DNA of 63,866 nucleotides, the filler included, from Cladosporium halotolerans (lineage: Eukaryota): NCBI RefSeq assembly GCF_011745625.1. It is 7 parts of 7 records of this genome, joined end to end, with 100 filler letters (N's around TTAATTAATTAA, not from the genome) between each part and the next. Parts side by side here need not be neighbours in the genome. Positions count along the whole stretch, not along the records: positions 9,965 to 19,761 come from NW_027191601.1; 6 more parts are not named here. The stretch is one strand, 5' to 3'. The notes under the pieces were generated by a model. It was not told the origin of the DNA and did no database searches. It saw only the letters and a list, made by a program, of their open reading frames with translations. Below are positions 1-42,521 of this stretch, piece by piece. Every line of letters starts with the position of its first letter. The stretch's first letter is position 1. The position numbers were made by a program, and so were the translations under genes.

Positions 1-92
1 CATTTCTCAGACAGACAGACAAGCCACCGCTCCTTAGGTAAGCAGACCAGACACTCCCGAAAATCTTGTCTGTCTGTCTGATGAACACCCTG
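1..92 (-). mobile_element. Terminus of a hAT-like DNA transposon (CAGGGTGTTCA...), element extends off the contig
   Basis: 1-96 is the exact reverse complement of 9766-9861. Starts CAGGG and carries an internal inverted pair TCAGACAGACAGACAAG / CTTGTCTGTCTGTCTGA. hAT assignment is inferred from the terminal sequence only. Confidence 0.65.
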
Positions 93-532
93 CTTGCGGC
101 CACTGCTTCGCCGCTTTTCCTCGCCTGAGTCTTGCAAGAGGCTGCTTGAGGCAATGCTCAGATCCTGGCGAGGGCATGTCTCGCTTTGTGCTGTTGGAAT
201 CTTGTCTGGTGTCATGGCTTGCTGCATTCGTCTGCATATTCATGAAAATCGAGACTGATGTTCTGTTCAAAGGTATGGTCGACACGCTGGGTAGAAGCTG
301 GTTGGACAGTGCAAAGACACGCCACGCGCACAGGCAACAAACACTTCCTCCAAGACCTTGATCGTTCATAACGTTACCTCAATATACAATACTGCAAAAC
401 AGTTGACACTTGGCGCTTTGAAGAGTGCACAAATTGTTCTGTTGATCACGCGTCTTACTAATCACTACAACGAGCTGATATTATCAATTCACGACCTCTT
501 TTTGCCACAGTCTGTTTCGTGCGCTTTTCGAC

Positions 533-4850: not shown

Positions 4851-7800
4851 GATACAAATGCAGATTACTCAGGTTGTCAACACTGCGATAGCAAACATGC
4901 AAGCCGAGGCGATCGGCGGGTAGAAGCCGCGCTTCAAAGAATTATGGAGATGCTCGAGACGGGGCCGTGGCAGAAAAATGAGGGGATGGAACCCTCCATC
5001 AGCCTTACGTCCAGCAAGTATGTGCCACGCAGGTTCCTCGCAGGCAAGAATGGACATCAGGGCAAGCAGCACAGCCAAGCTGGGCCAGTATCGCCGGGAC
5101 AAGTGGAGCAAATGGCTGGACCACAGTCGCAAACGGTAAGAAGAAGTTGAAAAAGCACCCGCTCGACCAAAGACGTTTTTATCTTCGCCAGAAATGTGCA
5201 GTCGCATAGCTGCGACCCAAGAAACATCATGTCCGAGGTAAACACGGCTCTAGCGCACGCGAGGGCTCATGTAACGGTGAGTTTGATCAGTTTGATCAAA
5301 ACGAGATACACAGAAAAAGGCAACTTGACGGTCGTGGTGAGTCAAAATGCATGCGCAGACGAGCTGTTCAACTATGCAACGGTCGTTATGGCTGCTGTGA
5401 AGAAGCTAGACCCCGAGGTCGCCTTTGTAGAAAGACAGAGAAGTGGCGCAAGCTGCGTGTGCACGGTGTTGCACTCGAAGGCACTCACGGGGAGATCTTA
5501 GGTGATCTCCAGCCCTGACGACCATTCTTGCATGTCAATCGACGATGATAGTGCTATAGTATGATTGTAACGGCACGGCCGTGTCAACGGTGGCTGCGCT
5601 AGAGGCGGGCATTGAGCGAGGTGGCGAGGTGGCGCGCTTGCAATAGCCGTATGTCGGAAGGAGACACGCGTTCAGCCACCCGGGATCCCAGATACGCTGG
5701 CCAGAATGCGCCAAGCAACAAATAAGGGTGGCGCTGGCGATCCGTAACGATGTGCTGGATCGCTACGTGTTCGAGGAGAGGACAGACCTGGTGGACAGCC
5801 CGCACGTGCAGTGTCTTGACATCTGGTAGACAACGATCCGCAGAACAAAGCGCCGAACGAGACTGATCAACGTTTACAACAAAGCCAGAGTCCAAGGCGG
5901 TGTATACACGATCGATTACATCGATTGGTCATCACTGATCGAAGGCAGGACCGTACTCGCAGGCGACTTCAATGCGCGCAGCCCTGAGTGACACCCGTGG
6001 GTTGCGGGAAAGCAGAATGGGACTACAAAACGGTTGATTGAGAGACACCAGCTTGTTGTCAACAGCAACGATGACCAAAAACACCAGACGCGGAAAGGGC
6101 TGTAAGTCAGTCATGGACTTGAAGCTCAGCACCCGCAGAGTGGGTGCGCTCACTATCTGGGAAATCCACGAGGACCTGGCCACAACGTCTGACCACGGGG
6201 TGATCGTCTTCGTGTAGACGCCGCTCAATGCGACCGCCTCAGGAAGGCAAAAAGACCTCACGCCGAGCTACAACATAGACCGTCTTTGCGCAGATGAAGA
6301 GGCGTTGAAAGAGGCCGGCGAGCACTGGCATGAGCTGAGTGAGGGGAAGGCGCTCATCAGTGCCTGGGCGGCGACACCGGCAGAATTCGAGGCAGAAGCG
6401 TGCTGGATGCAAGACAGTCTCAGGGCAGTGCTGGACCGACACGCATCCGGGAGGCCGCCGTTCGCACGCTCGAAACTATGGTGGACAGACGACGTCAAAC
6501 AGGAGAGACGGCTGTTCGGAGGCGCAAGACGTGCCTACAACGGCGATCGGATCAGATTCGACGAGTACCGTCAAGTGAGAAGTAAATATTACCGCCACAC
6601 CCGGAGACCCAAGCGTTTAGCCCGGGAACGCTTTCTTGAAGGCGTCTTCCCAACTGACGACTTCTCAAAATCCGCGAGTGATTCTGAGCTATTTGAAAAG
6701 CGCTCAGATACACGAAGCTTAAACGCTGTCGTATACCAGCAATCAAGATCAGCGGCGCTGATGGACAGCTGGACAAGGTAGTGGCGACGGCAGAAGAGAA
6801 AGAAGAAATCTTTATGGCGCAAGCCTTCCCATTTCAAGCCAGCGATGCAGACGACATGCAAATACCAGACACGATGACCAGTCTGAGCGCGTGTCAAGTC
6901 CGTGAAGCATTGTTTTGACAGTCTGTCAAGAAAGCACCGGGGGTGGACGGACGGTTTAAAGCGCTGCGGCTGCTATGGCAGCGGGCTGAGGAACAAACCG
7001 TGGCCCTCGCCCAAGGATGCATACGGACAGGGTACCACCCTTGCGCGTGGAAGACCGCAAAAGGCATTCTGTTGCGCAAGCAGGAAACCCTACCTACGCC
7101 GTCGCAAAAGCCTACCCGGTCATTAGCCTGCTCAGCTGTCTTGGCAAGGTTTATGAAAAGGTGGTCGCAACTTGGATTGCATCCTTCTGCGCGAAGAACG
7201 AGATCTTCCACCGAGGGCAAGTCGGCTGTCGACATGGAAAAGGCACGTCAAATGCTGTGGCGCAATCGATGACTAAACTCGAAGATGCGTGGAGCAAGAA
7301 GCGTGCCACCCTAGGGCTATTCCTTAATGTCAAGGGAGCCTTCGACAAAGTCACTAAAAGACAGCTGCTCAAGCGGATGATCGAAGTCGGTATAGCCGTT
7401 AATATCGTACGCTGGGTGCACTCATTCTTGATCGGCCGAGGGGCGAGGCTGGTGATCGACGTACGCACGGGTGAGACCCGCAGGATCCAGGCCGGCCTAC
7501 CTCAAGGATCACCGGTCTCGCCAGTACTGTGCATCTTATCGATCAGCGCCATGTTCGGATGGCTAGAAGACAGACACCCAAGATTGCAATCCATTTCGTT
7601 CGTAGACGACATAGGTTTGGTCATAGACTGCGAAGACTTGAATTCGGGCACCAGACGTCTCGAACGCATTGCCAGAGATGTGGTACGATGTGGAACCGAT
7701 AACAAAGTCGACTTCGAGGTCAGCAAGGCCGAGCTTCTTTTGTTCAGGAGGCGTCGCAAAGTCTTGCAAGCAGCAAAAGACGAAGTCGTTCGCATCGGAG

Positions 7801-9679
7801 AGCTAGGCTTCACGTTCAAGCAAGAAGCGACCAGGTGGCTAGGCTTCTGGCTCGACCCGAAGCTGGCCTTCAAGGTGCACTTCGAGAACAGGGTGGCGAG
7901 CGCCAAAGGTGCTCTGCAGCGGGTGGCCAGGCTCAATCGAAGCAACGGCGGCTTGACGGTCCACCTGATGAGGAGACTGATCGTCGGAGCAGTCACCGTC
8001 GTCGCAATGTACGGGTCGGAATCTGGTGGAGAGGCCAGAAGGACCGACTGGGGAAGCTCCAATTGCTGTTGAACAGTCAAGCAATGGCTATCATGGGGGT
8101 TGCTGAAGACAACACCATTGGCCTTCCTTCGGGAGGCGGCATGCTCCTTCGGGAGGCGGCATGCCTATTGAGTGCCAGAGGCCTTCTCGACTATCGGCAG
8201 ACCAGGTACGCGGTGCGCGCCCTCAGTGCGGACGGAGACCATCCGACGCATCAGCTCCTGCCTGCAAACTTCCGTTTCGGCGAGCTTCTCCGACACGAAG
8301 GAGCAACAGGTCAGCCATTCAGCATAAGCTGGACGAAGCTAGAGAAGACGCATCGGTCGTTAGGAGGCCGACTTGCACAGCAGATCGTTAGGAATGTCAA
8401 ATACGGCACAGAGTATAGATTCGAATTGCCCTGCGTCGAATTGCCCTGCAGGGTAGCTAGCTTCATCCGTACCAAGCCCGGTGATCCGAACTCACGGATA
8501 CTCCGACGTGGCGAAGACGATGCTACCTAATCACCAACAACAACTGGCAATCTTTGTAAGTGCGACCAAGGATATCAGTTATGGGGTAGGAGCCGCATGG
8601 AGAGAGCGACGCGAGTGGAAGACGAAGGCGTCAGCATTGGGCATGTACATGACAGCAGCTGATGCTGCACTGTTTGCCATCGGCATGGTTGTGAGGACCT
8701 CTCACGGTTCTCCATCGAGCAGATCACTGTTGCGTTGAGGTCGTGATGGTGTCGCGACAGGGACTGACCGTCATTGAGAGCGCTGAACACTGGGCACTAC
8801 CGATCATCACAAGCATGAAACGGCAGGCGCTGCGAGTTGAAGACGCAGGCGGTCGAGTGGTGCTAACATGGCTTGTGAACGGCGAAGGCGTAGAGGGCTA
8901 CGAGATCGCGAGCGCTGCGGCGCAAAGAGCAGCAAAACACCAGCCCAAAGAGACGCGATTGGCATCACTGCCTTACATCAGGCAAACCGTCAGAGAGAAG
9001 TGGAAGCTACAACGCAAGGATATTAAGAACATCTGGGATGCGAAAGAGTCAGTCGCAGCTCAATACTTGCAGCTCAAATCGGGACACGCAGTCACAGGCT
9101 TCTACCTCCTGAGGATCACTAAGGCCCACGACGCACACTGTTGGTGGTGTGGAGGAGTCGAGCAAACCATTGGACACCTATTGCTCAAATGCAGAACATG
9201 GCGGAGGCAGCGGGACGCCATGCTACGGAGGCTGAATAGCAAGAAGGCTTCGATCAGCGGAAGGCGAGACAGAGCAGACCTACAAACTCTGTTCAGAGCA
9301 AAAGCTGTCGTAGACGTGCTTCGATTCCTTGACGATACAGATATGGGTAAGAAAATGCCTGGAGAAAGCGATCAAGCTGATTCGTGGGGCATCGAACGAT
9401 TAGATCGGAGCGTTGAGGATGGAAAGCTGGCGGAGGGGATTGGAGGGGAATAAGGGGACGGATGATATTTGACAACGACGGAAAGGTAGGAGGGCAGTGA
9501 GCCCGAAAGCTGTGGCGGCTTGGTGAAGTCGAGATGGCGAGCATAACTGTACGGTAAAAGGCCAACGCGAGAGCACACATGGAAGTTATAGAAGTCGTCG
9601 AGAACATAGCCGACGTGCCATAAGCTATCTAGCTTGAATGCAACTTTTTTTTTTGATAAAAAAAAAATAAAAAGAAAAG
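4845..9679 (+). mobile_element. Degenerate Tad1-like LINE (family B): ORF1 fragment, APE endonuclease, RT, RNase H-like region, Cys/His knuckle, A-rich tail
   Basis: Endonuclease motifs AGDFNA and SDH (about 5960-6200); RT motifs KGAFDKV, GLPQGSPVSP, FVDD; LQLKSGH...CWWC...HLLLKC; T/A-rich tail 9644-9678; many indels and short tandem duplications (about 8126-8165, 8422-8450). Confidence 0.9.
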
Positions 9680-9769
9680 GGCAGAGGGTTCCTAGTATGC
9701 ACTCTCCATCCGGTATGCAATGTACGTTGGGCTCACTGTTTTGACGGCAGATTGTCGGGCGCTTCCAAG

Positions 9770-9864
9770 CAGGGTGTTCATCAGACAGACAGACAAGATT
9801 TTCGGGAGTGTCTGGTCTGCTTACCTAAGGAGCGGTGGCTTGTCTGTCTGTCTGAGAAATGGCA
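9770..9864 (+). mobile_element. Second copy of the same hAT-like terminus, opposite orientation
   Basis: Perfect inverted match to 1-92; flanking 8-mer CTTCCAAG. Confidence 0.65.
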
Positions 9865-9964
9865 NNNNNNNNNNNNNNNNNNNNNNNNNNNNNNNNNNNN
9901 NNNNNNNNTTAATTAATTAANNNNNNNNNNNNNNNNNNNNNNNNNNNNNNNNNNNNNNNNNNNN
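9865..9964. other. Artificial contig spacer (N44-TTAATTAATTAA-N44)
   Basis: Identical 100-nt six-frame-stop linker also at 19762-19861, 29592-29691, 39310-39409, 49000-49099 and 58610-58709. Confidence 0.99.
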
Positions 9965-10312
9965 TTCAACGCAACCGACGCTGGCGTGCGAAGGGACTTC
10001 TGGAGACTGTTCCCGAAGACCAGGGAGTCTTATGACATAGAAAAACAGCAAGAGGTACTCAAGGAGTTGTTGCGATCTAGCAATTGGAAGCGGCTTGGTA
10101 AGCCATGGTTCAGGCAGGACGCCGTGACTGGACTGGTCTACCGCAAGTCACCAGGGAGTCAATCCATGCCGATGGGCCAGATCACCGTTTGCGTACCCTA
10201 CGAGCATGAATTTGATATCGCTGTAAGCCAAGAAGGTCTTGTAATTGTACTCTCCGAAGCCCCACCGACTGATTGTAGCAGGCTGTCGAGCATGTTCGCT
10301 CGCACACGTTAG
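9965..10312 (+). CDS. Hypothetical protein fragment, 5' end off contig
   Basis: Open frame from the contig edge with protein-like composition; no recognisable domain. Confidence 0.35.
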   Translation, partial: FNATDAGVRRDFWRLFPKTRESYDIEKQQEVLKELLRSSNWKRLGKPWFRQDAVTGLVYRKSPGSQSMPMGQITVCVPYEHEFDIAVSQEGLVIVLSEAPPTDCSRLSSMFARTR

Positions 10313-11095
10313 ACTCAGAAAGCAACAAACCAAACGACATTGACTCGACTATCGCTTCAAAATACACGGGAGTCGACCGAGATCAGCTGAGATTTGTGAG
10401 AAAAAGGTGTGCCGATTGCAATGCGACGGAGACAGCTATTGTCAAGTTGGCTTGGACTGTCGACCGGTGGTACGCAGGCTACTAGTGACGGAGGATGCTC
10501 TAAATCCTGAATCTCATCCCCCGACGAAGACCAGAGTCAAGGGTGTCTCTAAGAGTAAGCTCTGCAAGCACTTCCCGAACCATGTCATAGCAGACACTAT
10601 CTCGAGCTCTACACACAAGTACTCCAGTGTATACTGGATTGCTTGTGAGGATAAGTTGGCCGAACCGATATGCACCAGACGCTCCACCATAGGCATATCC
10701 CGGCAGCAGTCAGCGAACTCATTCCAAGCTGCTTCTTACCCGACGAAGCACAACGCTTGATGCTGGTTGTCGGTTCTGCTTTCCTCAGGACGGATCGCGA
10801 GTACGTCCACGCTCACCAATCCCTCGTTACAGCTTCAATCTTGGCCGCCAGCTCCCAAGGCAAGGTCTGTTTCCAGACTGACATTTGGGCGCGAAAACAG
10901 CCTTTGGGGGTCCCTGCACTGATTGAGCGAAGAAGCATATTGGTACTAGCCTGGCGACAATACAACTAACAGACGGCCATCAATGTTCAGAGCATCTACG
11001 AGCGCGTCAAGCAGCATGAACCGAGCTCACTGCGTGTCTTTCCTTCAGCGACTGAGCTCGAACATGTTCTCGGCAAGACCGATGACATTCGCGCT

Positions 11096-11812
11096 TTGGA
11101 TGAAATTGCCGAATCTGCACACCAAAGCTGGTTCCGGCCGATTACTTGCGATTCTGCGACCCAGTGTCGGCTGAGCGAAGTCGGGGCAATGAAACGGAGC
11201 CACAGCTGCGGCAGCGAACATGTCATCCTGCACCCCAAAGCAATTGACGTCGCAAAGTATTTGAGATGCCAGTCAAGCGGGCGCAGGATCAGCAGTCGAC
11301 GAGCGGCCCAGACCACGGAACGATGGTTTCATCAAGAGTTTGTCGAGGGGTTGAGAAAAATTGGCGAGTTCCGCGTCTTCATTGTCACTGTCCAAGATAC
11401 GACGGCCAGACGAGGGCGCAGAGGAAGGGTACTCCAAGTTGTTCATACTATTGAACTTCCTGACAGAAAGCTTGTCGTCACTGTTTTAGGTTCTGGTGGA
11501 AGCCGGCCTGATGAACTGGGCACAAGTGAAAAAATACACATCGACGAGCTCCGAACGTTCGCACTTTTTGTATATGAGGCGTTGCGCTGCAGATCGAATT
11601 GGTCCACAAGCTTTGAATCCTTAGAGGTCGGGGCTCGCGTCGATGTGGGTGTTGCCCTCCTCGACAGTGTGCCCAAATACTTCGTCAATGAAGTCACACG
11701 AATCTACGAGGCAGATTTCTTCGCAGAGTGGTTGGCTCAGCCAGGGACCCAGACTTGCAGGGCCGTGTCGACGGCGTTTGCAGAGGTTTTTCTGGAAACA
11801 CAAGACAGCTGA
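11096..11812 (+). CDS. ATP-grasp-fold-like protein (probably the 3' exon of a longer gene)
   Basis: Ordered motifs KRSHS-CG, WFHQEFV..GEFRVF, RVDVGV, YFVNEVT resemble ATP-grasp ligase motifs (K..S.G, QEF/Y, E.R.F, R.D, VNE). Confidence 0.55.
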   Translation: MDEIAESAHQSWFRPITCDSATQCRLSEVGAMKRSHSCGSEHVILHPKAIDVAKYLRCQSSGRRISSRRAAQTTERWFHQEFVEGLRKIGEFRVFIVTVQDTTARRGRRGRVLQVVHTIELPDRKLVVTVLGSGGSRPDELGTSEKIHIDELRTFALFVYEALRCRSNWSTSFESLEVGARVDVGVALLDSVPKYFVNEVTRIYEADFFAEWLAQPGTQTCRAVSTAFAEVFLETQDS

Positions 11813-12125
11813 TGTTCTGTTCTAGAAAGGAAGCAAAAGCTTGATCAAACTCGGAACCTGAGCTACAACTTCATGCGATGCCATTCGCTGGCTCCGGGGT
11901 TCAAATCAACACACAGCGCCTCCTCTACTCTGAAAATGTGACCGTGGGAGGACTCAGAGCTCAGAATCTGCAGCGGTCGAGTCCAAGTTGGGACAGCGGG
12001 TTGAAGTGCTGGACACGGGACTGTGATTGAGAAGTTTGCTAGAAGATGTATCTCGTGTCACAAGCCACGTAGCATGGATACTGATGAAGTACATGTATGG
12101 AAAGGATCTAAGTCGGACTTGCCAA

Positions 12126-13030
12126 TCAATCTGATGCAAGGCTTGTTGACATGTCCATATCGGACATGTTCTCTTCGTCTGCGCTCCGCGACTCTACGGT
12201 CTGGCGGTTTATTAGTGGTGTCACTTTCGTGGTTGACGAAGTGATTAGCTTCCGCCTCTGCGCTAAGGTCATTCTTTGTAGAGTTGATTTCCTCTTCTTG
12301 CTGCCGCTTCCAGAACGGACGTTGTCCGATGGTGACCCGATAGTATCTGACGGCGAACCGAGGGCAATGAGGGCCTCTGACCGATGCCCTGTTGGTGCCG
12401 GTGAGTCTTGTTGGTGTTGAGGCTTCTGTAACAACTCCGATCTGGCAACCTGTCTCAGTTTGACAAAGCTCAAATTGATGCCTTTGTGCCTCTGCCATTT
12501 CGGAGCGAGTTCCCCTGAGTGAAAGGCGTCCTCAAATGGCATCTTCTCCAATGCCTTGACGGGGCGTCCATCACACGCAAACGTAGCGTAGAATTCCACC
12601 TTGAACTTGAATATCCTCACGTATAGATACACGTGACAAATCCTTCTCTTGAGCGTGACAGTCGATCCTGGTAGTTGCCGTTCAAATCTTCCAAATTCGG
12701 TCACCTTGCCAGCCTTGGTGAAGGCGAACTTGTCGTTGTTCCATCCTTCTATGATTTGTTCATCAGAAACGCCGGCCGGTGTTCCGAATACCGAGAGATC
12801 GAGAGAGGGAGGCTCATTCTCGGGGGCAAGGAGCTCGTAGTGTATGGGATGTGACGCTGACAAGCGATCCAGCACAGTCTTCGAGTCGTTCATGTCTTGT
12901 CCTTGCGTGCATATGCGGATCACGGCATCTTCATCATCCTCATTGGTCGATCCGTCTGAATCGCTTCGCAGCCAGAGCGACAACGGTACTTCCTTGGCCG
13001 AGAGAATGTCTGGGCGATGTTTTCTCTTTT
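12126..13030 (-). CDS. Hypothetical protein; 5' part probably separated by the LINE insertion at 13.0-13.9 kb
   Basis: About 300-aa open frame whose apparent start (MIIKRKKKR) is actually the LINE A-rich tail; possible upstream part at 14082-14336. Confidence 0.45.
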
Positions 13031-13730
13031 TTTTTCTTTTAATAATCATATTGCATTCAAGCTAAATAGCTTATGGCACTTCGGCTATCTTCTCAACGAC
13101 TTCTACGGCATCCTGGTGTGCTCTCGCGTTGACCTTTCATAGTACAATTATGCTCGCCGTTCCGGACTCCACCGAGCCGCCACAGCTTTTAGACTTATTG
13201 CCCTCCTACTTTCTTGTCTTTGTCATTCATCATCTTTCCCCTCATCCACGCCCGCTCTCTGCCATCTCTCCCTCTTCAACGCCCCGATCTAATCGTTCAA
13301 TATCCCATGAATCATCTTGGGCACCTTCTCCAGGGAATTTCTTGCCCACCTCTGTATCTTCGAGAAAATGGAGCACTTGTGCCGCGGCTCCTGTTATAAA
13401 CAGAGTCTGCAGGTCTGCTCTGTCGCTTCTCTAGCCGATCGAGATCTCCTTACTGTTCAGCCTTCGTAGCATGGCATCTCGCTGCCTTCGCCATCTTCTG
13501 CATTTGAGCAGTAGATGTTTGACTGATTGCTCGATTGCCCCGCACCACCAACAGTGTGCGTCGAGGGCCTTGCCAACTCTCAAAAGGTAGACACCTGTGA
13601 CCGCGTGGCCAGACTTGAGCTGCAAGTCTCGAGCTCGCACCGATTCCTTGGCATCTTTGACGCTTCTATCAATTTTGCCTTGTGGCTTTCACCTTTCTCT
13701 GATGGCTTGCTTGACGTGAGACAGTGACGC
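13020..13730 (-). mobile_element. LINE family B 3' fragment (knuckle, 3'UTR, A-rich tail)
   Basis: LQLKSGHAVTG...CWWC...HLLLKC matches 9067-9200; 3'UTR GCCATAAGCTA..TAGCTTGAATGCA matches 9617-9642. Confidence 0.9.
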
Positions 13731-13924
13731 CGAGCGCATTGTTCTTGGCTGTTGCCGTGCTGGTAGTTGCGTCGCAAGACTCGCGATTTTGTAGCATTCT
13801 ATGTTTTTGTCACTCGCAAGCCATGTCAGGGCCACTCGAACAGTAGAAACCAAAGAATTGAACGAACAGGAGAGAGAAGGGAAAAATCAATTCCTCAAGA
13901 GACTCACAGACCTTTCACAGCTGC

Positions 13925-13932
13925 AGAGAGAC

Positions 13933-14025
<93 letters not shown>

Positions 14026-14026
14026 A
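13925..14026. repeat. (GA)n microsatellite
   Basis: About 100 nt of near-perfect AG dinucleotide repeat. Confidence 0.97.
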
Positions 14027-14487
14027 GAATCGCGAGGCTCGAGCTTAGAGGCAAACGCACCGCGAGAAAACACCTTCGCCTCTACCGGCCTTTTTCACGT
14101 CTTGCTTTTGCCCTTTCACTACCTCGCTGCGTTTCAAGCAAGCGTGCCTTTTCTGCGAGGCTTGTTCCTGCGTCATCCTCTTTAAAAGGACTTCTTGCTT
14201 CTTTTTTCGAAGGTTCAGGTGCGATTGTTTGGTTCGGTTGCACAGGGCTCAGGAGGTGCGGATGCAAGAGACCGTTTCTGGTGTTCTCGTAGAAGCTTTT
14301 CTTTACTTGCCTTTGTTCCGACGCAAACGAGAGCAAGAATCAGGCTTTCCTCTCTTCTTTACAGAAAGTAGCGTCATTGATCTGTGCGTTTGCAAAACTT
14401 GTAAGAGGGGTGCGTTCTTGAATGCCCGCCGACCCCTCCTCATCTTGCAATTCTCCGTAGACTTATATCGCTGGCGTTCAATAAAGC

Positions 14488-16322
14488 ATGGCGGCCTCCC
14501 AATTCAAATTGCTCCCTTTCAACATGGATTTTGACCAAGCTTATGCAATTGGATTCCTGGGCGCCTTCGCACTTGTCTTACTCGTTCACCAAGTCGTGCG
14601 GGCTGCGCGACATTTGAAGCGGCCTCTAGCAAGGGTATTCAAACGTTACGTTCTACTACCTCGTATTTTCCAAGGTCGCTCTTCCATCAATCCCACTCGG
14701 GGGCAGGTCTTATGCTTTTTCATTCATTGCTCTGTGGCAGGGTTCTACAATATCTACCAAGTTCAGGATGCTCCGGACGCCGCGAGTCGCGCGGCAAGGT
14801 CAGCCTTGCTACACATACTGCCGCTCCTGACACCCAATCATGTATACTTCGTGTCGCACATGTTCGGCTCCTCAATCATTATTGCAGGGCATGCACACTA
14901 TATGCTTGGGTGCATGTCGATCTTCCAAGGCGCGCTGCATTGCGTCCTGCAAGCCTACGAGCAGAATTGGACGCCCAAGATGGGCATCCCCGAAATAGCT
15001 GTAACTCGTATTTACCCAAACCAACCTATTTGTGCTGACTTCAAGGCCAGGTTACCGTCACCATTGCTGTCTTAGTCGCGTCGCCTTTCTGCAGGAGCTA
15101 CTTTTACGAAATCTTCCTACAATTTCATCGAGCGTCGGCCGTGTCACTTGTTGTTGTGCTTTGGATCCATATCGAGCCTGCTCAGAAACTTAGTAGAACG
15201 CTAGTTCTGGCCGGCACATTACTTTACGCGGTTGCATTCGCCTTTCAATTGATCAGACAGATGTACATGAACGTCAACCGACATCTTGAAATCGGCCGAG
15301 TTGAGATCGTTGACAGGGACTGGGGTCTCGATGTCATTGGGGTAAGGCTATCCCATAGATGGACGGTCCAGCCCGGTACCTACGTCCTGTTGACGGTGCT
15401 AAGTTGGAGGCATGCATCCTTCCTGCAAAGGCATCCTCTGATGGTGGCTTGGATCGAAAGCTCGGACGGCGAGTCAACGATATATTTCGTTGTGCAGCCA
15501 CAGAAAGGTTGGACGGGCTGTCTCAGCACTTCATTGGTCGATCGAAAGATCTGGCTGGACGGTTTGTATGGGAAGCCATATGACGCGGGATCTCGCGACC
15601 TCTCCGACCATGACACTGTCCTTCTGGTCGCAGAAGAAAGCGGCATATTCGCGCATCTGCTCATCCTCAGGCACTTAGTGAAAAGCGTGAATTGCGGTGC
15701 CATGAAGACGAGGCGCATCATCTTATACTGGAAAGCACGAGGCTTTCACGACAGGATCAGGTTTTGGCTCACGGAAGTAGTCGTGGAAACTGATGGATAC
15801 CTAACTGTAATGACCATCTGTGCTTTCTGTAGTCTATAGCTGACAGGCCGCAGTTCCTGGACATGAACATACACTACCCTCCCGACAGAATCCTCCCGAA
15901 GGAGAAATTCGAGAGAATCACGAACCACATTACCGAATCGAGCGTCGAAGAATACGTCCAGAAGGCAATGGCTTTGAAGGGGAGCAGCAGAATCGCTATA
16001 GTTGGTGAGTCTGGTACAAAAACTGCCCCTAAATATAACATCAAATTAATATGAACGAGTATCCGCGGGTAAGCAGATGAGACATGAAGCAAGAGCTGCC
16101 GTGTTGAAGCGCAACTTGAGCGGCGTGAAAAGTGAGCGACGAGAAGCAAAAGGCGAAGTAACAGTGCCAGCAATGAATCAACGTGAGCTGAGCGTGTCCA
16201 GATTCAAAGAAGAGAGAGGTAAGCTCTCCCGGGAAGAACCGACGGTCATGCGTGATAGCGGATGGTACGATCTGGAACTGTACGAGCATGATTTTCAGCC
16301 ACAAGATGTCGATCTTTTTTGA
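14488..16322 (+). CDS. Ferric reductase-like (FRE/NOX family) transmembrane protein, multi-exon
   Basis: TM helices with heme-type His (HAHYMLG..ALH, FHR..WIH), FAD-binding PGTYV..QRHPLMVAW, WLDGLYG, VLLVAEESGI, terminal LELYEHDFQP; GT-AG introns near 15001, 15807 and 16005. Confidence 0.8.
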
Positions 16323-17003
16323 TTATGTAGAATCATTTCGTTGACTCGATACAGTCTGATTTTGAATTTGATGTAACATTACAGTGAAGATCGTAATCTG
16401 TAATTTCGCGTCCTCGCCTCGCCCAGCCTGTTGGTGATGCGCGCCCGAACCTGCCTGTCTTGCAACAATGAGCGACAAAAGGGGTCTCTAATGTTGGTAT
16501 AAGATTACTGTCTCTATCAGTTGACTTGACGAGGACATTGCCGTGCCTTTAGCATAATGTTACATCCTGGAATACAGGTGAGCTGTCGAGATGCAAAAGC
16601 ATTCCGAGACGTCTCTATCCATCCCTAGCAGCAGTGAAAAGGGAAGAAGACGCGGATAAAGGTTCGCGAAGAAGCCCATCATGCAATTCTATCATACGGA
16701 GCGTTGATGCAAACATGCTACACTTCTTGAGATCACCGTAGTAACGTTCGCTGTCGCTGCGTGTGACGCCAAGGGATACAGGCTGCGCGTCAAAAGGGGA
16801 AGTGAAGCTGCGGCAGCGACCGCGATGAACCTGACAACGTTTATAAGCTCGGTAAGACTATCCACTTTACCCAGTGCGGCTGCAGCGAGACAAAGACACT
16901 AAAGACGGGAGGCCTGGTACTCGAGCTTTGCGAGCGCACAGCACATGAATTATCAAAATCATTCGCGATAAATTTGCTCTGGACTGCATCGACCACCTCC
17001 TCT

Positions 17004-19600
17004 TTAGCGGAACATTCCGAATTTTCTCTTTTTCTTTTTCTCGGGGTCTTCGTCATGCTCTCGCTTTACAGGAATGACTTTCTTTGGATCCGAGGGAGGA
17101 GGCGGCAGCCATATAGTTTCTCGATTATCAGGACGTCCACGGTTCTGGGCTCCACTTGATCTGCTACCTGCTCTTTCCAATTGTACTTTACGGTTGTCGG
17201 GGGTTAAATGACTATCTCGAGGTTTATTACTGATCAACCGCGTCGAGTCGGGTGAAAGAGAAGGCTGTGTTATCCTCTCCAGAGGTTTGGTGGAGGATCG
17301 TTCTGGCTTGACGGCAGTACAGCTCGCTCTCGCTGCTTCCCCCGAGAAACTATGAGTACTTGATCCTCTTCTTGAAGTAGTCTCGCGTTCCCTTGAAGAC
17401 CCTGTGGGCGATATGGTACCTTCCGAAGTCGGCTTTGAGGAGCAAAGCCGATCGAGGTAACTCATAGTGCTGGACTGACCACAAGACTGAGAGCCATCTC
17501 TGGCTCGATTGATGTCGACAGACAGTTGTTGAATACTCCTGGTACTCACTGAGTATCTTGATGATGCGGACTTGCTCGGAAAGCCTCCGGATGGCGGCTG
17601 CATGATGCATATCCTGTCGCTAGCTTCCTCATGCATACCGTCGAAGTCTCCGTATTCAGCGTCCTCGCAATCACTGGCTTGTAGACCCGATTTCACTTTA
17701 GTAGCCAAGTCTTCGTCGGCTTCTATCGTCTGGAAAGGATTACCTTTCCGCAGGATCTCATATATAGCATCGTTGTCGCGAGCCGGTCGTTTGTGTCTGC
17801 GATACTGAGTCCGTACTTTCGATGCTCTGTTTCCTTTCGCCTTTCCAAATCTCCTGTAAGATGCTGCTGAATGACATGGGGAGCGAGTGTCGTGGTTTTG
17901 TCGAGGTAGTTCGCTAAGTCCTGGATCGTCCACCCACCTTTCGACCTCAGAGGGTCTCCAACAACAGTGTATAATATCCCGTGCAACGGCATAATAGGTT
18001 GCATGTGTTTTTTGTTGAGTGTCTGATGTACTAAAAACGTAACTCGCATCTATGACGTCCCTCACTTGGATATAGTTTCTTTTTGATGGCCTGTTGCATC
18101 TGTCTTCCCAAGCTAGGGAGACGACGTTGCTGCTTAGCTCCGGGTTCCGAAAGACCCTTTTGGCTTCGGTCTTCTCGATTGGATGGCCAACTTTCGCCTT
18201 CTCGATCTCCTTGGTCCTAAAGCCAAGTTGGAAAGCCAGATGAGCCAGTTGCGCCCGTTTCGCTGCCGGAGAATCATGGAACGCAGCGCAAATGTCGGAA
18301 GGCGTACGATCCTGTAACGGCTCACTTGCTTTGCCATCCGACAGATACGGAAATTCTCTCATAGCTTTGAGCCAGAGGTTGACGTAGCAGTCTCGAAAAT
18401 TGCCGGGACGTTCCCAAAGATGCTGTTGTTCTGACGGCACACCTAGTTCTCTCTGGTGGTCGGGAACCCATCTCTGGTGACATAGTTCCTCGAAGCTGGA
18501 AGTCCCCAGTCTACGGATAGGCGGTATGAGGGCCTTCAATCCTTCGAAGCACGCCCGGATGTAGATGAAATCGCCAAAGAACGATTCAAAAGTCACAATA
18601 CGCTTGCATCTCAGAACCCGCTTGCAGATGCTACGACGCTGGACAGCATCCTTGATAAAGGGAAACACTTTGCCAGCAGCGAATAGCTCGAGTACGGTAT
18701 CGCAATCGTGCGACGAATATGCCGGAAATAGCATCTGCAATGCCAATACGGTTGATTCGTCGAGATCTTTGGAGAGAACATCGGCACCCAAGATGTAGTC
18801 CCAGGTCTGCTTGATAGCGTATAGGTACGCATAGACTTCCTTCGCTCATGTCACTACAATGTCATCTTTGAGAAAGGAAGTGACTTTACCTCGCGACAAC
18901 GCATTGAAAGGATGGGCTCCCAATTTCCAGTCTTGCACTGCAGCCCTCTATATTGCAAAACTTCTCGCACCGCATAGCTCAGCTTGCCACCATCATCCCT
19001 TCGGAGCTGCTTGTACGTGTTCTGATGGGTTTTTGACATATTAGAGTTACTCATCCAGACATTGAGGGTGTCTGTGTCCTCCTCGTTCAAGAGCATCAGA
19101 AGATCTCGTCCATTGAGCCCATTGGATGATTTTCGATTGGATTGCAAGAGGCTTACAAATGCCTTCGACGTTATATCTGTGTGTAATCAGTACTAGCTCT
19201 ATTTGATCATTTCAGAGGTTACCCGACTTTGATTGTAAAGTCTAACCGACCAAAACGAATGGCTCTCACGAAGGAACTTTCTTCCTGCTTGAAGGCGGTG
19301 TATGCCGTAGAGAGGCCGCAGATTTTCTGGAAATGATAGAATGCAACTGCTTTTCTCTGAGTTCGACAGTGCCGAGAGGGAAAGGTTTGCCTGAGCAAGC
19401 GCATCCTCCAGCTTGCTTGGATCCACAAGAGCGGGCACAGCATGGGTCCTAGTATTGTTGATGCAACCAATTTGAGGATGGCTGAAGTCCTCCACCAGCC
19501 TCTTCACAGTATCGGCTCTGACGTGCCTCATTGGATCCGGCTCGAGGTTGCTCAGTTTTATGAGGGCTAGGCCTAAGAAATACGGATCTTCTGCAGCCAT
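17004..19600 (-). CDS. DUF3723-family protein (Starship-associated), multi-exon
   Basis: N-terminal F-LGLALIKL..VKRL..F...GC...HAVPALV and LYGIHRLQAG..FW-VRLY; later exons TVLALQMLFP..S..D, VFP, I.TF..FF.D..Y, YVNLWLKAMREF, LAHLAFQLGFRT. Family recognised by eye. Confidence 0.75.
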
Positions 19601-19947
19601 TCAATTCCGTTCGCTTGGCGAGCGTGAATAGTGGTGAAGAGTTGGAGGTTCCCCGTTCTTGAACCTAGCTGATGACCAGGTTCAGTAGAGAGCTCCTACT
19701 TTGGAACTGCATTCTGGGCCCCCTGGCCACCGTGACCTCACCATTCCTGTTAACACCCCCCNNNNNNNNNNNNNNNNNNNNNNNNNNNNNNNNNNNNNNN
19801 NNNNNTTAATTAATTAANNNNNNNNNNNNNNNNNNNNNNNNNNNNNNNNNNNNNNNNNNNNTCATTCCCAGACATCCATGTTCATATCATGTCGGAATGA
19901 TGAACATGACATGACGTAATGAACATAATGAACATAATGGACTGTCG

Positions 19948-39309: not shown

Positions 39310-39510
39310 NNNNNNNNNNNNNNNNNNNNNNNNNNNNNNNNNNNNNNNNNNNNTTAATTAATTAANNNNNNNNNNNNNNNNNNNNNNNNNNNNNNNNNNN
39401 NNNNNNNNNGTGTTTGTTTCAACCTCTTCGAGCCAGATGTAAACTTTTGGACGTAAATAGTGTGTTGCCCTTTAGGTGCTTAGCGCCGGGCGGAATAAAG
39501 TTCATCATTA

Positions 39511-41673
39511 GAAGCTTTCCCCACTCAGTTCACAACACCACTCAATGCACACGCGTCGCGAACGCGACGCGACGCCCTTGATCATCGCATATCTCACGCA
39601 TTCAACTACTGAGGCTATCCATATAATAGCATGTGATGACCTTGCATATGACCAGTACTCGTGTTAATTATCTAGTGCTGAAGCTTTCTCGAAGGTTTGA
39701 GGACTCTGCCACTTGATGACACGCCTGGTCCTGGAGCCCTCGGCCTGTTTTTGACTACTATGGCATCTCCGTCTTTCAGTAGCTCTTCCGGCCTTCCGGG
39801 GTGCGTTTTCTGGCTGCTGGTTTTCCTACAAGAGGTTGGATTGGGCATTTCCGAATGACCTGGAGCTTTTCTAGCCATTTTCGCAGCCGCCTTGCTAGCA
39901 ATCCTGGCTGCTAACGCCGCCCTCTTTTCTTCGGCCTTTTTTTGTCTTTCAGCCTTTCTTTCCGCCAATTGTTGGGCTTTGAGTAGATTCGCTTGCTCTC
40001 TCTCTTTTGCCTTGATAGCTTTTTGTTGCTGTTGCAGGTCCTTTTCGTCCTTTTTTGCCTGCTCAAGATCCTGAAGCTGCTTCACCTTGCGGGGATTGAA
40101 GAAGGTAGCACTGCCCTCGTCCCTGGATCTGAATCCTCCATGAGCTTCTTGCCTCTTTTCCTGCGGCTGCGCTCGTCGTAGAGAGCCGCTGATAGTCTCT
40201 TGTTTCCTTCTTTTAGCAAGGTGATCTCCGCAGATTGTGAGATGACCTTGTTCCCGAGGTACTCCAAGCTCTTCCTGTGTTTTGCGTCTGCCACCTTCGT
40301 CACAGTTTTGTTCACCATGCTCTGAATCTTCCGCCAGTCCTTTGGAGACAGATTGGAGCTCTCTGAGCCACTGAATCTGCTACACGGGGTACGTGGCTCC
40401 TCTGTCTGATCACCTGGTGGGGTCGCAGATTTTTTGAACACCTTCATTACCACGGGCGGATCGAAAGGCCATAAGCCAGTCTTTGCCCATCCACTCTTGA
40501 TGTTGGCCTCTGTGAACGCCTTCTGCCATGCTGGCCCGAAAAGACGAAGAAAGTTACGCTTGGTGACCCCCGTAAGGCCTTCTGATTGCCTCATGTGCTC
40601 ATCCAGGCCTTTGCTGTAAGATGTGGCTAAGGGGGCGAACAGGCTGACGTCCAACGGCTGCAGTCTGTGTGTCGAGTGAGGTGGGTACACAGCGACTAGT
40701 ACTTTGTTGGACTGGCACCAATCGAGGAATCGGATGGTCAAATGCGAGCCATGGCCATCCAGATACAGCAGTCTCCAGTCCCTCTTCGCTTTCTCCTTTG
40801 TTTCCCTGTCGAAGAGGTTTACCAACCAGTCAAATCCCAGCTCATCGTTGGTCCATCCATTAGCAGAGGATGCGAGGAAGGCTAAGTGGTCTTCCTCCTT
40901 GACCCCATCCAACCAACTGTCTTGGACAGTGTTTGGTTGGCCTTCGTAGATTATCCCTGGAGATAAAGACGTTCCATCTGCACAAATTGTAGCCACAACA
41001 GTCACCCACGTTCTACTACCATCCTGAGCGGTGCCCACGAGCTTTTGATTGTCGAAAAGAGCCTTTGTGAACACTCTCTTGCTTTTAGTAAGATACCCAA
41101 TCAGGAATCCCTTTTCGTCCATATTGTACATGTTCCAAGGCATTATACCATACTGCTCGATCTTACCGCTCAGAACATCGAAATACTGCTTGAAAGAGGT
41201 CGTGGACTCAGCTTTGTGCCGTGAAACATCCAGTGTGTTGAGATATTTAGAATCCAATTCGTCGCTCCATCTTCTCACAAACCTTGAAGTCCAATTTTTT
41301 CCGGGCTGTCTCTTCGCAATTTGACTGGCAATATTGGCGACCATGTATGGTGTAGGTGGGAAGCCTCTCTCGCACAGTGTATTTATGTGTTTGATAAGCA
41401 CCTTCTCTTGCTTTGTGGACAAGAACTGTTTTTGTTGTGTCGCTTGGGATCTCGAGCCACTTTGGTGATTGAATCTCCTGCTGAGGGTGCTTCTATTGAC
41501 CTGGAATTTTTTGGCGGCTTCTGAAATATGAGGAACACCTTGAGTATTCAAATATGCAATTGCTTCATCGATAGGAAGCATGTTGGTTGAAGTATGCGAT
41601 GATCAAGGGCGTCGTGTCGCGTTCGCGACGCGTGTGCATTGAGTGGTGTTGTGAACTGAGTGGGGAAAGCTTC
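39511..41673 (-). mobile_element. Full-length Fot1/pogo DNA transposon (2163 bp)
   Basis: 81-bp TIRs at 39511-39591 and 41593-41673 (one mismatch), TA on both sides, transposase inside. Confidence 0.97.
39672..41581 (-). CDS. pogo transposase (HTH plus DDE) with a 1-nt frameshift near 40133
   Basis: YNMDEKGF, LYLDGHGSH, HSTHRLQPLDVSLF; the shifted frame continues FRSRDEGSATFFNPRKVKQLQ into ORF 39672-40085. Confidence 0.93.
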
Positions 41674-42521
41674 TACCGATGAAAAGGCTCAGCGCCGCTT
41701 CCGGACGAAAGGCAACATCCCGACAAGACACACCGACCAACTTCGAACAAGGGCTAAATCGATGCGACAGCAATCGAGCCCGGCCAGACATTGCGGGAGC
41801 AGGACAGTTGCGAGAAAGGGGCTCGAAGAGGCTTGGAAAGCCAGGTGGACCAGGGACCGGCAGGAAACGCGTTTGTCGGCGAAGGATAGCAACCTATCCG
41901 TTGCAGCGCGTGCGACGTGGACTGGAGGATTACGGACGAAGGAAAATTTAAAACGGGCCGAGAGTACAGTCGCAACACTACTTAGGACCGAACACGTCGG
42001 TCTGAACGACTACCTATCTCGGAGGCGCGTACCCGGATACCCGAAACCAGACTGCGGTTGCGGCTGGCCGCGACAGACTTCAAAACATGTCATCTTCTTG
42101 TTTTGTCCTGCACACACGACAGCACGGGCAGAGATGCTAGCAGAAGCAAAGACGACCGACTACACAAAGTTGCTGTCTACCGAGGCAGGCCTACGTGCGG
42201 TGACCAAGTGGTTCTTGCGGCGGGACATCCTCGCCCAATTCGGCGAGGACATCGGATGACGCAAAACCAAGACGACGAGGACGAAGGCCGGGGACGTACG
42301 TGGATGAGGATGATGGCGATTGTTAAAGCGCGTCGGAGGCGCGCAGCTACGTTTTACTGTATCGTAGACTCACTGGCGGGAGGGCAATGGCCATCCATTT
42401 AGAGAAGAAGGAGTTTTCACCCGGGCCACGGCCACGGTTTTCCTCCTTGATAGCATACATAGTGACAGCCCGCATGGACCCGTAAGGGAGCTACACCGGG
42501 ATAATGGAATATCAAATCAAA
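41674..42521 (+). mobile_element. LINE family A 3' fragment
   Basis: Closely similar to the reverse complement of about 860-1707; CGCG..HV..CP knuckle; ends CCGGGATAA..ATCAAATCAAA. Confidence 0.92.

Follow-up and report, generated by a model that had tools for sequence, protein, structure and literature searches.

A ParB/Srx-like fold predicted for the N-terminus of DUF3723, in a convergent FRE/DUF3723 gene pair on probably Starship-derived DNA

A FRE-family gene and a DUF3723 gene face each other on a short contig from Cladosporium halotolerans, and the N-terminal domain of the DUF3723 protein is predicted to adopt the ParB/Srx fold. Taken jointly, these observations are best explained, with a likelihood somewhat above even, by Starship-derived accessory DNA carrying a DUF3723 protein with a ParB/Srx-fold N-terminus and a divergent FRE protein. 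The locus as such adds one more ordinary example of Starship-type auxiliary genes to those already known. No other auxiliary gene is linked to Starships as closely as DUF3723, and it is the fold assignment that may be of importance.

The stretch of DNA analysed, here called the window, is 63,866 nucleotides long and consists of seven short contigs, separated by spacers of the form N44+TTAATTAATTAA+N44. The source assembly is fragmented and Pezizomycotina-like. Both genes lie on contig 2 (9965-19761, 9.8 kb), which contains the following features.

9965-13014, no strand: left flank, ORFs without a Pfam family, about 94-97% conserved in contigs of four other sequencing runs.
13020-13839, minus strand: LINE fragment, 5'-truncated (3' end), 74.7% identical over 827 nt to the 3' end of the contig 1 LINE (8853-9678, reversed).
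13925-14028, no strand: (AG)n microsatellite of 52.5 copies, lying after the LINE fragment and before the FRE gene.
14488-16322, plus strand: FRE-family (ferric-reductase/NOX-like) gene, 4 exons, 560 aa, no internal stop.
14488-15000, 15051-15806, 15854-16004 and 16060-16322 (stop included), plus strand: FRE exons, with introns of 50, 47 and 55 nt.
17004-19600, minus strand: DUF3723 gene, 3 exons, 831 aa, no internal stop, Pfam PF12520.
19600-19228, 19176-18890 and 18839-17004, minus strand: DUF3723 exons, with introns of 51 and 50 nt and the stop TAA at 17006-17004.
19229-19600, minus strand: predicted N-terminal ParB/Srx-like domain, aa 1-124, all in exon 1, from the AlphaFold2 model, fold matches and hhalign.
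19283-19312, minus strand: LYGIHRLQAG, candidate Box II GxxR phosphate-binding (P) motif, aa 97-106, with G99, H101, R102 and A105.
17856-18839, minus strand: conserved middle domain, the first ~330 aa of exon 3, with many invariant Cys, Arg and Trp in the alignment.
17007-17855, minus strand: C-terminal tail, poorly conserved, Ser/Arg/Lys/Pro-rich and of low complexity.

An earlier note on this DNA had described a FRE-like gene on the plus strand facing a DUF3723-like gene on the minus strand, on a contig that otherwise holds orphans and a LINE fragment. This description was borne out. Both gene models are intact, the genes are convergent with 681 nt between their stops, and the pair adjoins the LINE fragment and the microsatellite. 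To the left of 13061, none of the four larger ORFs matches a Pfam family at E<=10. The LINE fragment, recognised by its 3' end match, has a tail that is T-rich on the plus strand (13020-13043) and contains a weak zf-RVT match (13431-13688, E 0.0024). Behind position 13014, each of the four sequencing runs compared has contigs that continue unlike the window. Two runs lack a GT..AG segment of the left flank (10223-10281), with a clean join across it. At the other end, 161 nt separate the DUF3723 ATG from the contig edge upstream of it.

The DUF3723 identity passed its profile check, as PF12520 matches far above its curated cut-off of 22 bits. The match covers profile positions 179-406 of 508 on the exon 3 ORF (17004-18845, E 8.3e-38, 130.8 bits) and positions 5-83 on the exon 1 ORF (19199-19600, E 5.5e-16, 58.8 bits). 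The exon 2 ORF alone gave no PF12520 match, and its counterpart in the paralogue from metagenome locus L003 matches positions 84-181. The three-exon layout is repeated in all five metagenome loci (L001-L005), and 13 relatives were found for exon 3. For the middle domain, PF12520 is the sole match, in 14 of 14 members, and no match exists among PDB sequences. In the tail, a KKKKRK run (17022-17039) resembles a nuclear-localisation signal.

The FRE gene starts at the ATG at 14488, as proposed earlier, and the extent of its exon 2 was set from a relative (P0015, 51% identical). The protein aligns end to end with full-length relatives, including the C-terminal ELYEHDFQP motif. Its identification as FRE-like was right, resting on homologues. 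In the profile check, the domain matches are collinear, but every one falls under the Pfam curated cut-off: Ferric_reduct has a sub-threshold E of 0.053, FAD_binding_8 scores 21.1 bits (cut-off 22), and NAD_binding_6 scores 15.3 bits (E 0.022; cut-off 22.2). The family assignment follows from the homologues, which carry the domains. There are 698 relatives at E<=1e-3, and among the 22 scanned FAD_binding_8 is present in all and the full set of three domains in 15.

The spacing of two His pairs that hold two haems is a general rule of NOX and FRE proteins, and both pairs are kept here (His 137/151 and 197/211, 14 apart each). In a motif census of 150 homologues, His occupies both positions of the second pair in 141 of 142. 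The FAD motif HP-x is also kept, with HP-L in place of HP-F/Y (L in 9 of 148 homologues). In the NAD(P)H motif, Glu replaces the first Gly (Glu in 5 of 146), and electron transfer from NAD(P)H is therefore plausible but uncertain. The protein is best read as a di-haem, FAD-binding membrane flavocytochrome and a divergent member of a ~500-aa FRE clade.

The two families were rightly named in the earlier note as recurrent Starship auxiliaries. DUF3723 and FRE are two of four conserved auxiliary families (PMC9156397; PMC11162782). DUF3723 is described as highly Starship-specific (PMC12256816), and later work employs it as a marker gene specific to Starships (preprint 10.64898/2026.01.28.702382). 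In one annotation pipeline, a gene counts as DUF3723 if it carries IPR022198 "with no other IPRs" (PMC12256816). The closest known counterparts of the pair are the DUF3723 and FRE auxiliaries of Starships, for example mp102_11356 and mp102_11352 of Voyager (Gluck-Thaler et al. 2022, PMC9156397), which belong to the same two Pfam-defined families and lie close together. Like Starship auxiliaries, the pair on contig 2 is found in a Pezizomycotina-type genome and adjoins transposon debris. By contrast, a PLP or NLR gene is absent from contig 2, no element boundaries were seen on it, and the repeat search gave nothing relevant. The captain of a Starship is a DUF3435 tyrosine recombinase at the 5' end, and none was found among the 152 ORFs of at least 110 aa across the window, whose seven contigs are unlinked to each other.

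Contig 2 also resembles the "derelict", or degraded, Starships of PMC9156397, in which auxiliary genes persist without a captain. A captain-less region is counted as a degraded Starship if it has at least three DUF3723, FRE, PLP or NLR matches (Gluck-Thaler et al. 2022), and the cross-genome survey in the same paper requires four. Contig 2 carries two such matches (DUF3723 and FRE), below this rule, a count that is limited by its length of 9.8 kb.

As the main alternative, a repeat-rich region would hold both genes as free-standing accessory paralogues, with no relation to any past or present Starship and with an incidental adjacency. We regard this as possible, at rather less than one chance in two. 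It would fit the lack of a captain, a boundary or a third auxiliary gene in the window, as well as the finding that 204 of 316 FRE homologues in M. phaseolina are located away from Starship and Starship-like regions (PMC9156397). FRE does not adjoin DUF3723 in the loci of the nearest relatives. L001/L002, the one relative's locus with downstream flank, lacks FRE, and its flanks show no captain over 2-9 kb. Against it stand the Starship specificity of DUF3723 (PMC12256816) and its use as a marker, and a distance of under 700 nt between members of two of the four auxiliary families fits the published co-localisation (PMC9156397). Further, in sequencing run X2, labelled as another organism, the match to the window is closer in the pair than in the flank among the pieces listed, beyond which there are 277 more: DUF3723 shows 0-1 differences in 281-359 nt and FRE shows 16 in 1145 nt, and the four left-flank pieces differ by 3-5%. 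Relatives behave as mobile-element genes: L003/L004 hold tandem paralogues, L001/L002 hold copies with in-frame stops, and an NLR-like TPR_10/12 ORF lies upstream in L002.

Starship-derived accessory DNA is the most likely nature of the region. Its place beside the LINE fragment and the microsatellite speaks for this, as does the GC3 of DUF3723 and FRE, which is lower than in four housekeeping genes of the window. That contig 2 may be part of a Starship interior, as suggested earlier, is plausible, with 9.8 kb of sequence to judge by. The pair could come from an active element with its captain on another contig, or from a captain-less "derelict" remnant.

The suggestion that the DUF3723 N-terminus is ParB/Srx-like finds support in both fold and motif, with moderate support for the fold of aa 1-124. 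The sequence-family libraries tried did not detect it. This claim concerns the DUF3723 family, beyond the gene in the window, and is drawn from a single model of moderate confidence together with a weak signal in the profile comparison. We did not find such an assignment for DUF3723 in the literature searched. The 124-aa domain was modelled with AlphaFold2 from an alignment of six sequences, giving a pLDDT of 70.6 and a pTM of 0.65, with two of five models above pLDDT 60. In Foldseek, the best 12 matches listed are all Srx, ParB or PadC, the first with E 0.043 and probability 0.94; none reaches E 1e-3. In a search against 48,161 chains, the best was the Srx 6ky4 (Z 6.5, rmsd 2.7, 75 aa). In a second structure comparison, all 31 matches listed belong to the ParB/Srx fold group or are Atu1540, with the ParB 7bnk as the best (Z 6.6, rmsd 2.2, 73 aa).

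In the model, the LYGIHRLQAG motif sits between a strand (97-98) and a helix (100-109). G99, H101, R102 and A105 are invariant in all six aligned N-termini. Aligned by hhalign to 16 bacterial ParB_N domains, the six-sequence alignment scores 25.0 (P 0.0011, probability 20%), and the GxHR of DUF3723 (LYGIHRL) is paired with the GERR of ParB ("aGeRRwrA"). GxxR is the Box II, or P, motif, which binds phosphate in the ParB-CTPase fold (PMC12704722), and by its sequence the DUF3723 N-terminus keeps this motif as G99-x-H101-R102. Neither Box I (the C motif) nor Box III can be clearly made out. When exons 1 and 2 were aligned together, LLQxNR fell opposite ENxxR (P 0.0043), and the LQxNR stretch aligned with Box III is absent from the paralogue. 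Box III is often missing in orphan ParB-fold members (PMC12704722).

It could be argued that this likeness is a generic small alpha/beta arrangement with a chance G-x-x-R, in a domain without nucleotide binding; we consider this unlikely, at about one chance in five. The Z scores, all below 8 and at most 6.6, are in the range that the tool calls common, and the Foldseek E of at least 0.04 and the low hhalign probability would agree with chance, as would the shallow alignment. No sequence library tried detected the relationship: ParB_N (PF02195) and related profiles matched none of the six N-termini in Pfam, PADLOC or NCBIfam at E<=10, and PDB sequence searches with the N-terminus found no ParB family. 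However, only 11 of the 48,161 chains reach Z>=2, and eight of these are Srx, SerK, SbnI, PadC, KorB or ParB by title, that is, of the ParB/Srx fold. Two independent aligners agree. The profile signal exceeds all 150 column shuffles (mean 10.9, max 20.2) and both cross-controls (11.3 and 17.2), and it falls on the phosphate-binding motif of the family, of which G99, H101 and R102 are kept even in a paralogue only 27% identical.

With the ParB/Srx fold as the preferred reading, DUF3723 is similar to the ParB-CTPase fold proteins (ParB, Noc, KorB and PadC; PMC12704722) in the predicted fold of aa 1-124 and in a GxxR Box II at the strand-to-helix junction. Orphan proteins of this fold are often found on mobile elements (PMC12704722), as is DUF3723. 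Unlike ParB, DUF3723 has no PF02195 match, carries His instead of the first Arg of GERR, has a helical insertion of ~25 aa ahead of the motif strand and is hosted by a eukaryote. A survey of the fold gives Srx as its main eukaryotic representative, and the word "fungi" does not occur in that survey (PMC12704722).

The signature of sulfiredoxin is G-C-H-R, which the G-x-H-R of DUF3723 resembles, and Srx is its best or near-best structural match (6ky4). However, DUF3723 has ~700 further residues, and a sulfiredoxin was rejected as Ile, Asp or Lys occupies the position of the catalytic Cys in all six sequences. The only homology of DUF3723 published in the literature searched is a distant one to an SMC profile (TIGR02168, "chromosome segregation"; PMC9156397; PMC10104507). 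This label is common to SMC and ParB. The signal described here is instead of the ParB/Srx type, a different fold, and lies within the N-terminal 124 aa. An SMC-type protein was rejected, since TIGR02168 matched none of the six DUF3723 sequences or pieces (NCBIfam, E<=10).

We suggest that DUF3723 consists of three parts: a ParB/Srx-fold N-terminus, a Cys/Arg/Trp-rich middle domain and a low-complexity tail ending in KKKKRK. Such a protein may be nuclear, may bind a nucleotide triphosphate and may act on the DNA of its own element. In analogy to the ParB/KorB-type proteins of plasmids and integrative elements, it would load on DNA and hold or silence it. No DNA-binding domain, HTH or dimerisation domain was recognised in DUF3723. 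It can be speculated, tentatively and against the odds, that DUF3723 is the eukaryotic counterpart of plasmid/ICE ParB/KorB, a nucleotide-gated DNA-associated switch that, once loaded on the DNA of the element, would hold it, silence it or pass it on after excision. If true, this would be the first case of a eukaryotic transposon with a ParB-type NTP switch, and Starships would show a direct mechanistic parallel to bacterial integrative and conjugative elements. Preprints up to mid-2026 give the function of DUF3723 as unknown. A ParB/Srx-type domain with an intact GxxR would offer a handle on this function that can be tested by mutation, and it bears on the maintenance and transfer of giant Starship elements.

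Finally, it is very improbable that contig 2 comes from another organism in the sample, a contaminant or an associate: the GC3 of DUF3723 (0.509) and FRE (0.591) is under the 0.647-0.721 of four housekeeping genes of the window, and near-identical pieces occur at low depth in run X2, but other accessory-type genes of the window have a similar GC3 (0.53-0.56), the LINE fragment is related to the contig 1 LINE and to a piece of contig 5, and run X1 contains all sampled words of the stretch.

Since the 63,866-base window joins seven short contigs in falling length order, genes that lie on different contigs are not neighbours. The gene pair studied here lies on contig 2, which comprises 9,797 bases (window 9965-19761) and was described in the earlier note as two convergent genes accompanied by orphans and a LINE fragment. 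Gene models, Pfam matches and alignments all agree with this description, and the features are as follows.

9865-9964 and 19762-19861, for example: spacers between contigs, each 44 N + TTAATTAATTAA + 44 N
13020-13839: LINE 3' end, in opposite orientation to the contig 1 LINE (74.7% over 827 nt)
13925-14028: (AG)52 array
14488-15000, 15051-15806, 15854-16004 and 16060-16322, + strand: exons of the FRE-like gene, best model, 560 aa
19600-19228, 19176-18890 and 18839-17004, - strand: exons of the DUF3723 gene, from the sequence read against its relatives

The DUF3723 assignment is confirmed by two matches to PF12520 on the minus strand, one on the ORF at 17004-18845 (E 8.3e-38, profile positions 179-406 of 508) and one on the ORF at 19199-19600 (E 5.5e-16, profile positions 5-83). 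The two introns are 51 and 50 nt long, and the product of 831 aa has no internal stop. Five loci were recovered from JGI metagenome contigs with a pattern scan, and by tblastn all of them share the three-exon layout. A word-index search with exon 3 gives 13 related ORFs from metagenome and Logan assemblies, with 38-53% identity in the best local alignments, and none of them bears a functional name. The same type of search with exon 1 finds no relatives among longer proteins and a single one, a 99%-identical ORF, among proteins of similar length. The protein-atlas search returned DUF3723 clusters only, besides DUF6551 at 0.88, and neither the exon-3 alignment nor the six-sequence N-terminal alignment has relatives among viral contigs. 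Tandem paralogues on the same strand are seen at two metagenome loci, L003 (1296-3442 and 4515-7087, ~27% identical in the N-terminal domain) and L004. Two other copies, L001 4146-4883 and L002 8775-9512, contain in-frame stops in exons 1 and 2, for instance a stop replacing a Trp of the relatives, and are therefore probably pseudogenes.

For exon 1 (aa 1-124) an alignment was made with the five available relatives, namely one twin at 99% identity, three copies from metagenomes (43-48%) and one paralogue (27-28%). Across this alignment G99, H101, R102 and A105 of the motif LYGIHRLQAG are invariant. An AlphaFold2 model of these 124 residues, built from this shallow alignment, is of moderate quality (pLDDT 70.6, pTM 0.65; two of five models above pLDDT 60) and places the motif between a strand and a helix. 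Foldseek finds no match to the model in the PDB at E<=1e-3; its best 12 rows are sulfiredoxin (Srx), ParB and PadC (best E 0.043, probability 0.94), and among the lower rows that align well (rmsd about 3-5) are Noc, SbnI and free serine kinase, with unrelated AhpC rows mixed in from rank 20. Independently of Foldseek, an all-against-all pass over 48,161 representative chains gives 11 chains at Z>=2. Judged by title, eight of these are Srx, SerK, SbnI, PadC, KorB or ParB, which leaves Atu1540, Osa and an O-phosphoserine sulfhydrylase. When the Foldseek candidates are re-examined, 39 of 362 reach Z>=5, and the 31 listed among them are, Atu1540 aside, all of this fold group. The best chain of the pass is 6ky4 (Z 6.5, rmsd 2.7, 75 aa) and the best re-examined candidate is M. 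xanthus ParB, 7bnk (Z 6.6, rmsd 2.2, 73 aa); every Z score obtained for this domain lies in the range that the aligner calls common.

A weak signal for the same relationship comes from profile-profile alignments. A ParB_N profile was made from 16 of 22 bacterial matches, i.e., those above the curated cut-off less two near-identical copies. Aligned to it with hhalign, the DUF3723 N-terminal alignment scores 25.0 (P 0.0011, probability 20%), and LYGdHRLxAa is set against ivaGeRRwrA. The highest score in 150 column shuffles is 20.2 (mean 10.9, sd 2.5), reversing the alignment lowers the score to 13.0, and the cross-controls give 11.3 for the N-terminus against integrases and 17.2 for the middle domain against ParB. 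With exons 1 and 2 spliced, the ParB alignment is still collinear over 99-116 columns (P 0.0043). By sequence, no ParB/Srx match is found in Pfam at E<=10, PADLOC, NCBIfam or the PDB (phmmer or profile), and SMC-type NCBIfam/TIGR models do not match the six DUF3723 sequences at E<=10. The ParB/Srx-like character that had been noticed in LYGIHRLQAG has both the fold searches and the hhalign motif alignment in its favour, and it is the part of the finding that merits pursuit. We consider it likely that the DUF3723 N-terminus adopts a ParB/Srx fold.

In the position of the catalytic Cys of the Srx signature, the DUF3723 sequences hold Ile, Asp or Lys; thus, the protein is not a sulfiredoxin. According to a survey of the ParB-CTPase fold, SerK, SbnI and Srx share this fold, GxxR touches the phosphates of the nucleotide, and its R-to-A exchange abolishes NTP binding (PMC12704722). 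Nucleotide binding by DUF3723 through its GxxR motif is perhaps slightly more likely than not. The survey also notes that orphan members often lack Box III and that the bound nucleotide is not predictable from sequence (PMC12704722).

The middle domain is conserved and rich in Cys, Arg and Trp. Its protein-atlas neighbours (query 17856-18839, - strand; named clusters, PF12520 excluded) have low scores of 0.76-0.80, and the named sets are all tyrosine-recombinase-like: Phage_integrase (12% of members), DUF3504, ResT-TelK_cat and Integrase_1. An hhalign comparison of the first 335 residues with 24 bacterial Phage_integrase domains gives no support (P 0.27), a PDB profile search with the domain has no matches, and Pfam assigns PF12520 alone to 14 DUF3723 members. 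The tail is long and of low complexity.

We suggest that DUF3723 would combine a ParB/Srx-type nucleotide-binding head with this Cys/Arg/Trp-rich middle and a low-complexity tail ending in KKKKRK. The best fit would be a nuclear, NTP-regulated protein that works on the DNA of its own element, in the manner of ParB/KorB-type proteins on plasmids and integrative elements. The main alternative is that DUF3723 is an enzyme, either a phosphotransferase like SerK/Srx or a nuclease. The nuclear, NTP-regulated role remains the reading we prefer. Full-text searches of the literature gave no report connecting DUF3723 with the ParB/Srx fold; such an assignment may already exist in bioRxiv supplements, InterPro or AlphaFold DB. 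Judged by titles and abstract openings, the literature naming both Starships and ParB concerns plasmids or compost mobile elements, and preprints from 2025 and 2026 give the function of DUF3723 as not known. In the ParB-CTPase survey, eukaryotes were searched with PF02195 at the gathering score, Srx is the main eukaryotic member and the word 'fungi' does not appear (PMC12704722).

The second gene of the pair starts at ATG 14488 on the plus strand, as the earlier note had it. The end of exon 2 was set by P0015, a relative with 51% identity; a 557-aa model with a weak GTAGTC donor is superseded by the 560-aa model, and a 40-nt candidate intron in exon 4 was rejected, as it would delete a conserved C-terminal motif. 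The gene's own Pfam matches are collinear with the FRE domain order but all fall below the curated cut-offs (Ferric_reduct E 0.053; FAD_binding_8 21.1 bits against a cut-off of 22; NAD_binding_6 E 0.022). HMMER finds 698 relatives at E<=1e-3 among 1.84 billion representatives, 225 at 1e-10 and 11 at 1e-30. In 22 relatives scanned from the best 150 of the 698, FAD_binding_8 is always present and all three FRE domains are found in 15. The alignment of the protein with full-length relatives of ~500 aa begins at the N-terminus and extends as far as the ELYEHDFQP motif at the C-terminus. Among the best 150 of the 698 homologues, the second haem His pair is retained in 141 of 142; the FAD motif H-P-[F/Y] is found in 137 of 148, with HPL in the window gene and nine of 148; and 117 of 146 keep the first Gly of the NAD motif, which is Glu in the window gene and five of 146. 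From this alignment, the His pair and the motif census, the gene encodes a divergent, probably folded FRE-family flavocytochrome; whether it draws on NAD(P)H is uncertain.

The earlier note took this pair to lie, probably, inside a Starship. Its premise is borne out by the literature: DUF3723 and FRE are two of four auxiliary families co-localising with DUF3435 captains (PMC9156397, PMC11162782), and later pipelines take DUF3723 as a Starship-specific marker (10.64898/2026.01.28.702382, PMC12256816). DUF3723 genes are also present in Pegasus, an active Starship of Paecilomyces variotii. None of the 152 ORFs of at least 110 aa across the window, whose seven contigs are unlinked, matches DUF3435. 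Contig 2 has only two auxiliary-family matches, and a captain-less degraded Starship needs at least three according to Gluck-Thaler et al. (PMC9156397). At the loci of the relatives, neither FRE nor a captain is found within the 2-9 kb of flank present. Upstream of the L002 copy (1-1740 and 5320-7359) are a TPR_10/TPR_12 ORF, truncated at the beginning of the contig and of the kind found at the NLR C-terminus, and an F-box/LRR ORF. The window scans with Rfam and for tRNAs are empty and thus reveal neither a 5S nor a tRNA target site, and contig 2 has neither a RIP signature nor a compositional boundary. The Starship reading has circumstantial support from the tandem and stop-containing copies among the relatives and from GC3, which is 0.509 in DUF3723 and 0.591 in FRE, compared with 0.647-0.721 in four housekeeping genes of the window.

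Contigs from other sequencing runs bear on the same question. The listed pieces from run X2, labelled as another organism, are 98.6-100% identical over 14247-19585 compared with 94.6-97% over the left flank 10355-13806, where four listed pieces differ at 3-5%. Among those listed, DUF3723 pieces show 0-1 differences per 281-359 nt and FRE pieces 16 differences in 1145 nt. A recently moved or shared segment would be expected to produce this step; the left-flank pieces may instead be paralogous copies, and the junction is not spanned by any contig. Runs X11 and X12, which share their organism label with the likely source run X1, have contigs over 9965-13888 only (~90-97% likeness) and none over 13889-19761, and run X3 has none over the FRE gene. 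We give these gaps no weight, since X11 and X12 cleanly skip a GT..AG segment and so may derive from RNA, and since the gap is not spanned by any contig. The Starship reading of contig 2 is plausible, and we lean slightly towards the pair being Starship-derived DNA, in an unspecified state. That the two genes are free-standing copies, as the missing captain and the lack of FRE beside the relatives might suggest, is the less likely reading.

Left of 13061 there are four larger ORFs, all without a Pfam match even at E<=10. The family-less ORFs of the left flank (9965-11812) are something real, as they are ~94-97% alike in contigs of four other runs. A 59-nt GT..AG segment at 10223-10281 is cleanly skipped in two runs, as in a spliced transcript or an intron-less copy, and no RNA run is among those listed as containing the stretch. 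At 13014/13015 the contigs of four runs depart from the window sequence with a continuation common to all four. The break behind 13014 falls at the tail of the LINE fragment; this tail is T-rich (13020-13043), and the fragment has a weak Pfam match to zf-RVT. Because this shared continuation is found nowhere in the window, either the LINE fragment is not a simple insertion into the arrangement of those runs, or their contigs are paralogous.

Contig 1 also holds LINE reverse-transcriptase fragments, and its ends (window 1-96 and 9766-9861) form a perfect 96-nt inverted repeat, which could represent terminal repeats or have arisen in the assembly. On contig 5, an open DDE_1/HTH_Tnp_Tc5 transposase ORF of 506 aa (40085-41602, - strand) is flanked by 91-nt inverted repeats at 39501-39591 and 41593-41683 (96.7%), and 39501-41683 has the appearance of an intact pogo/Tc5-type transposon (~2.2 kb).
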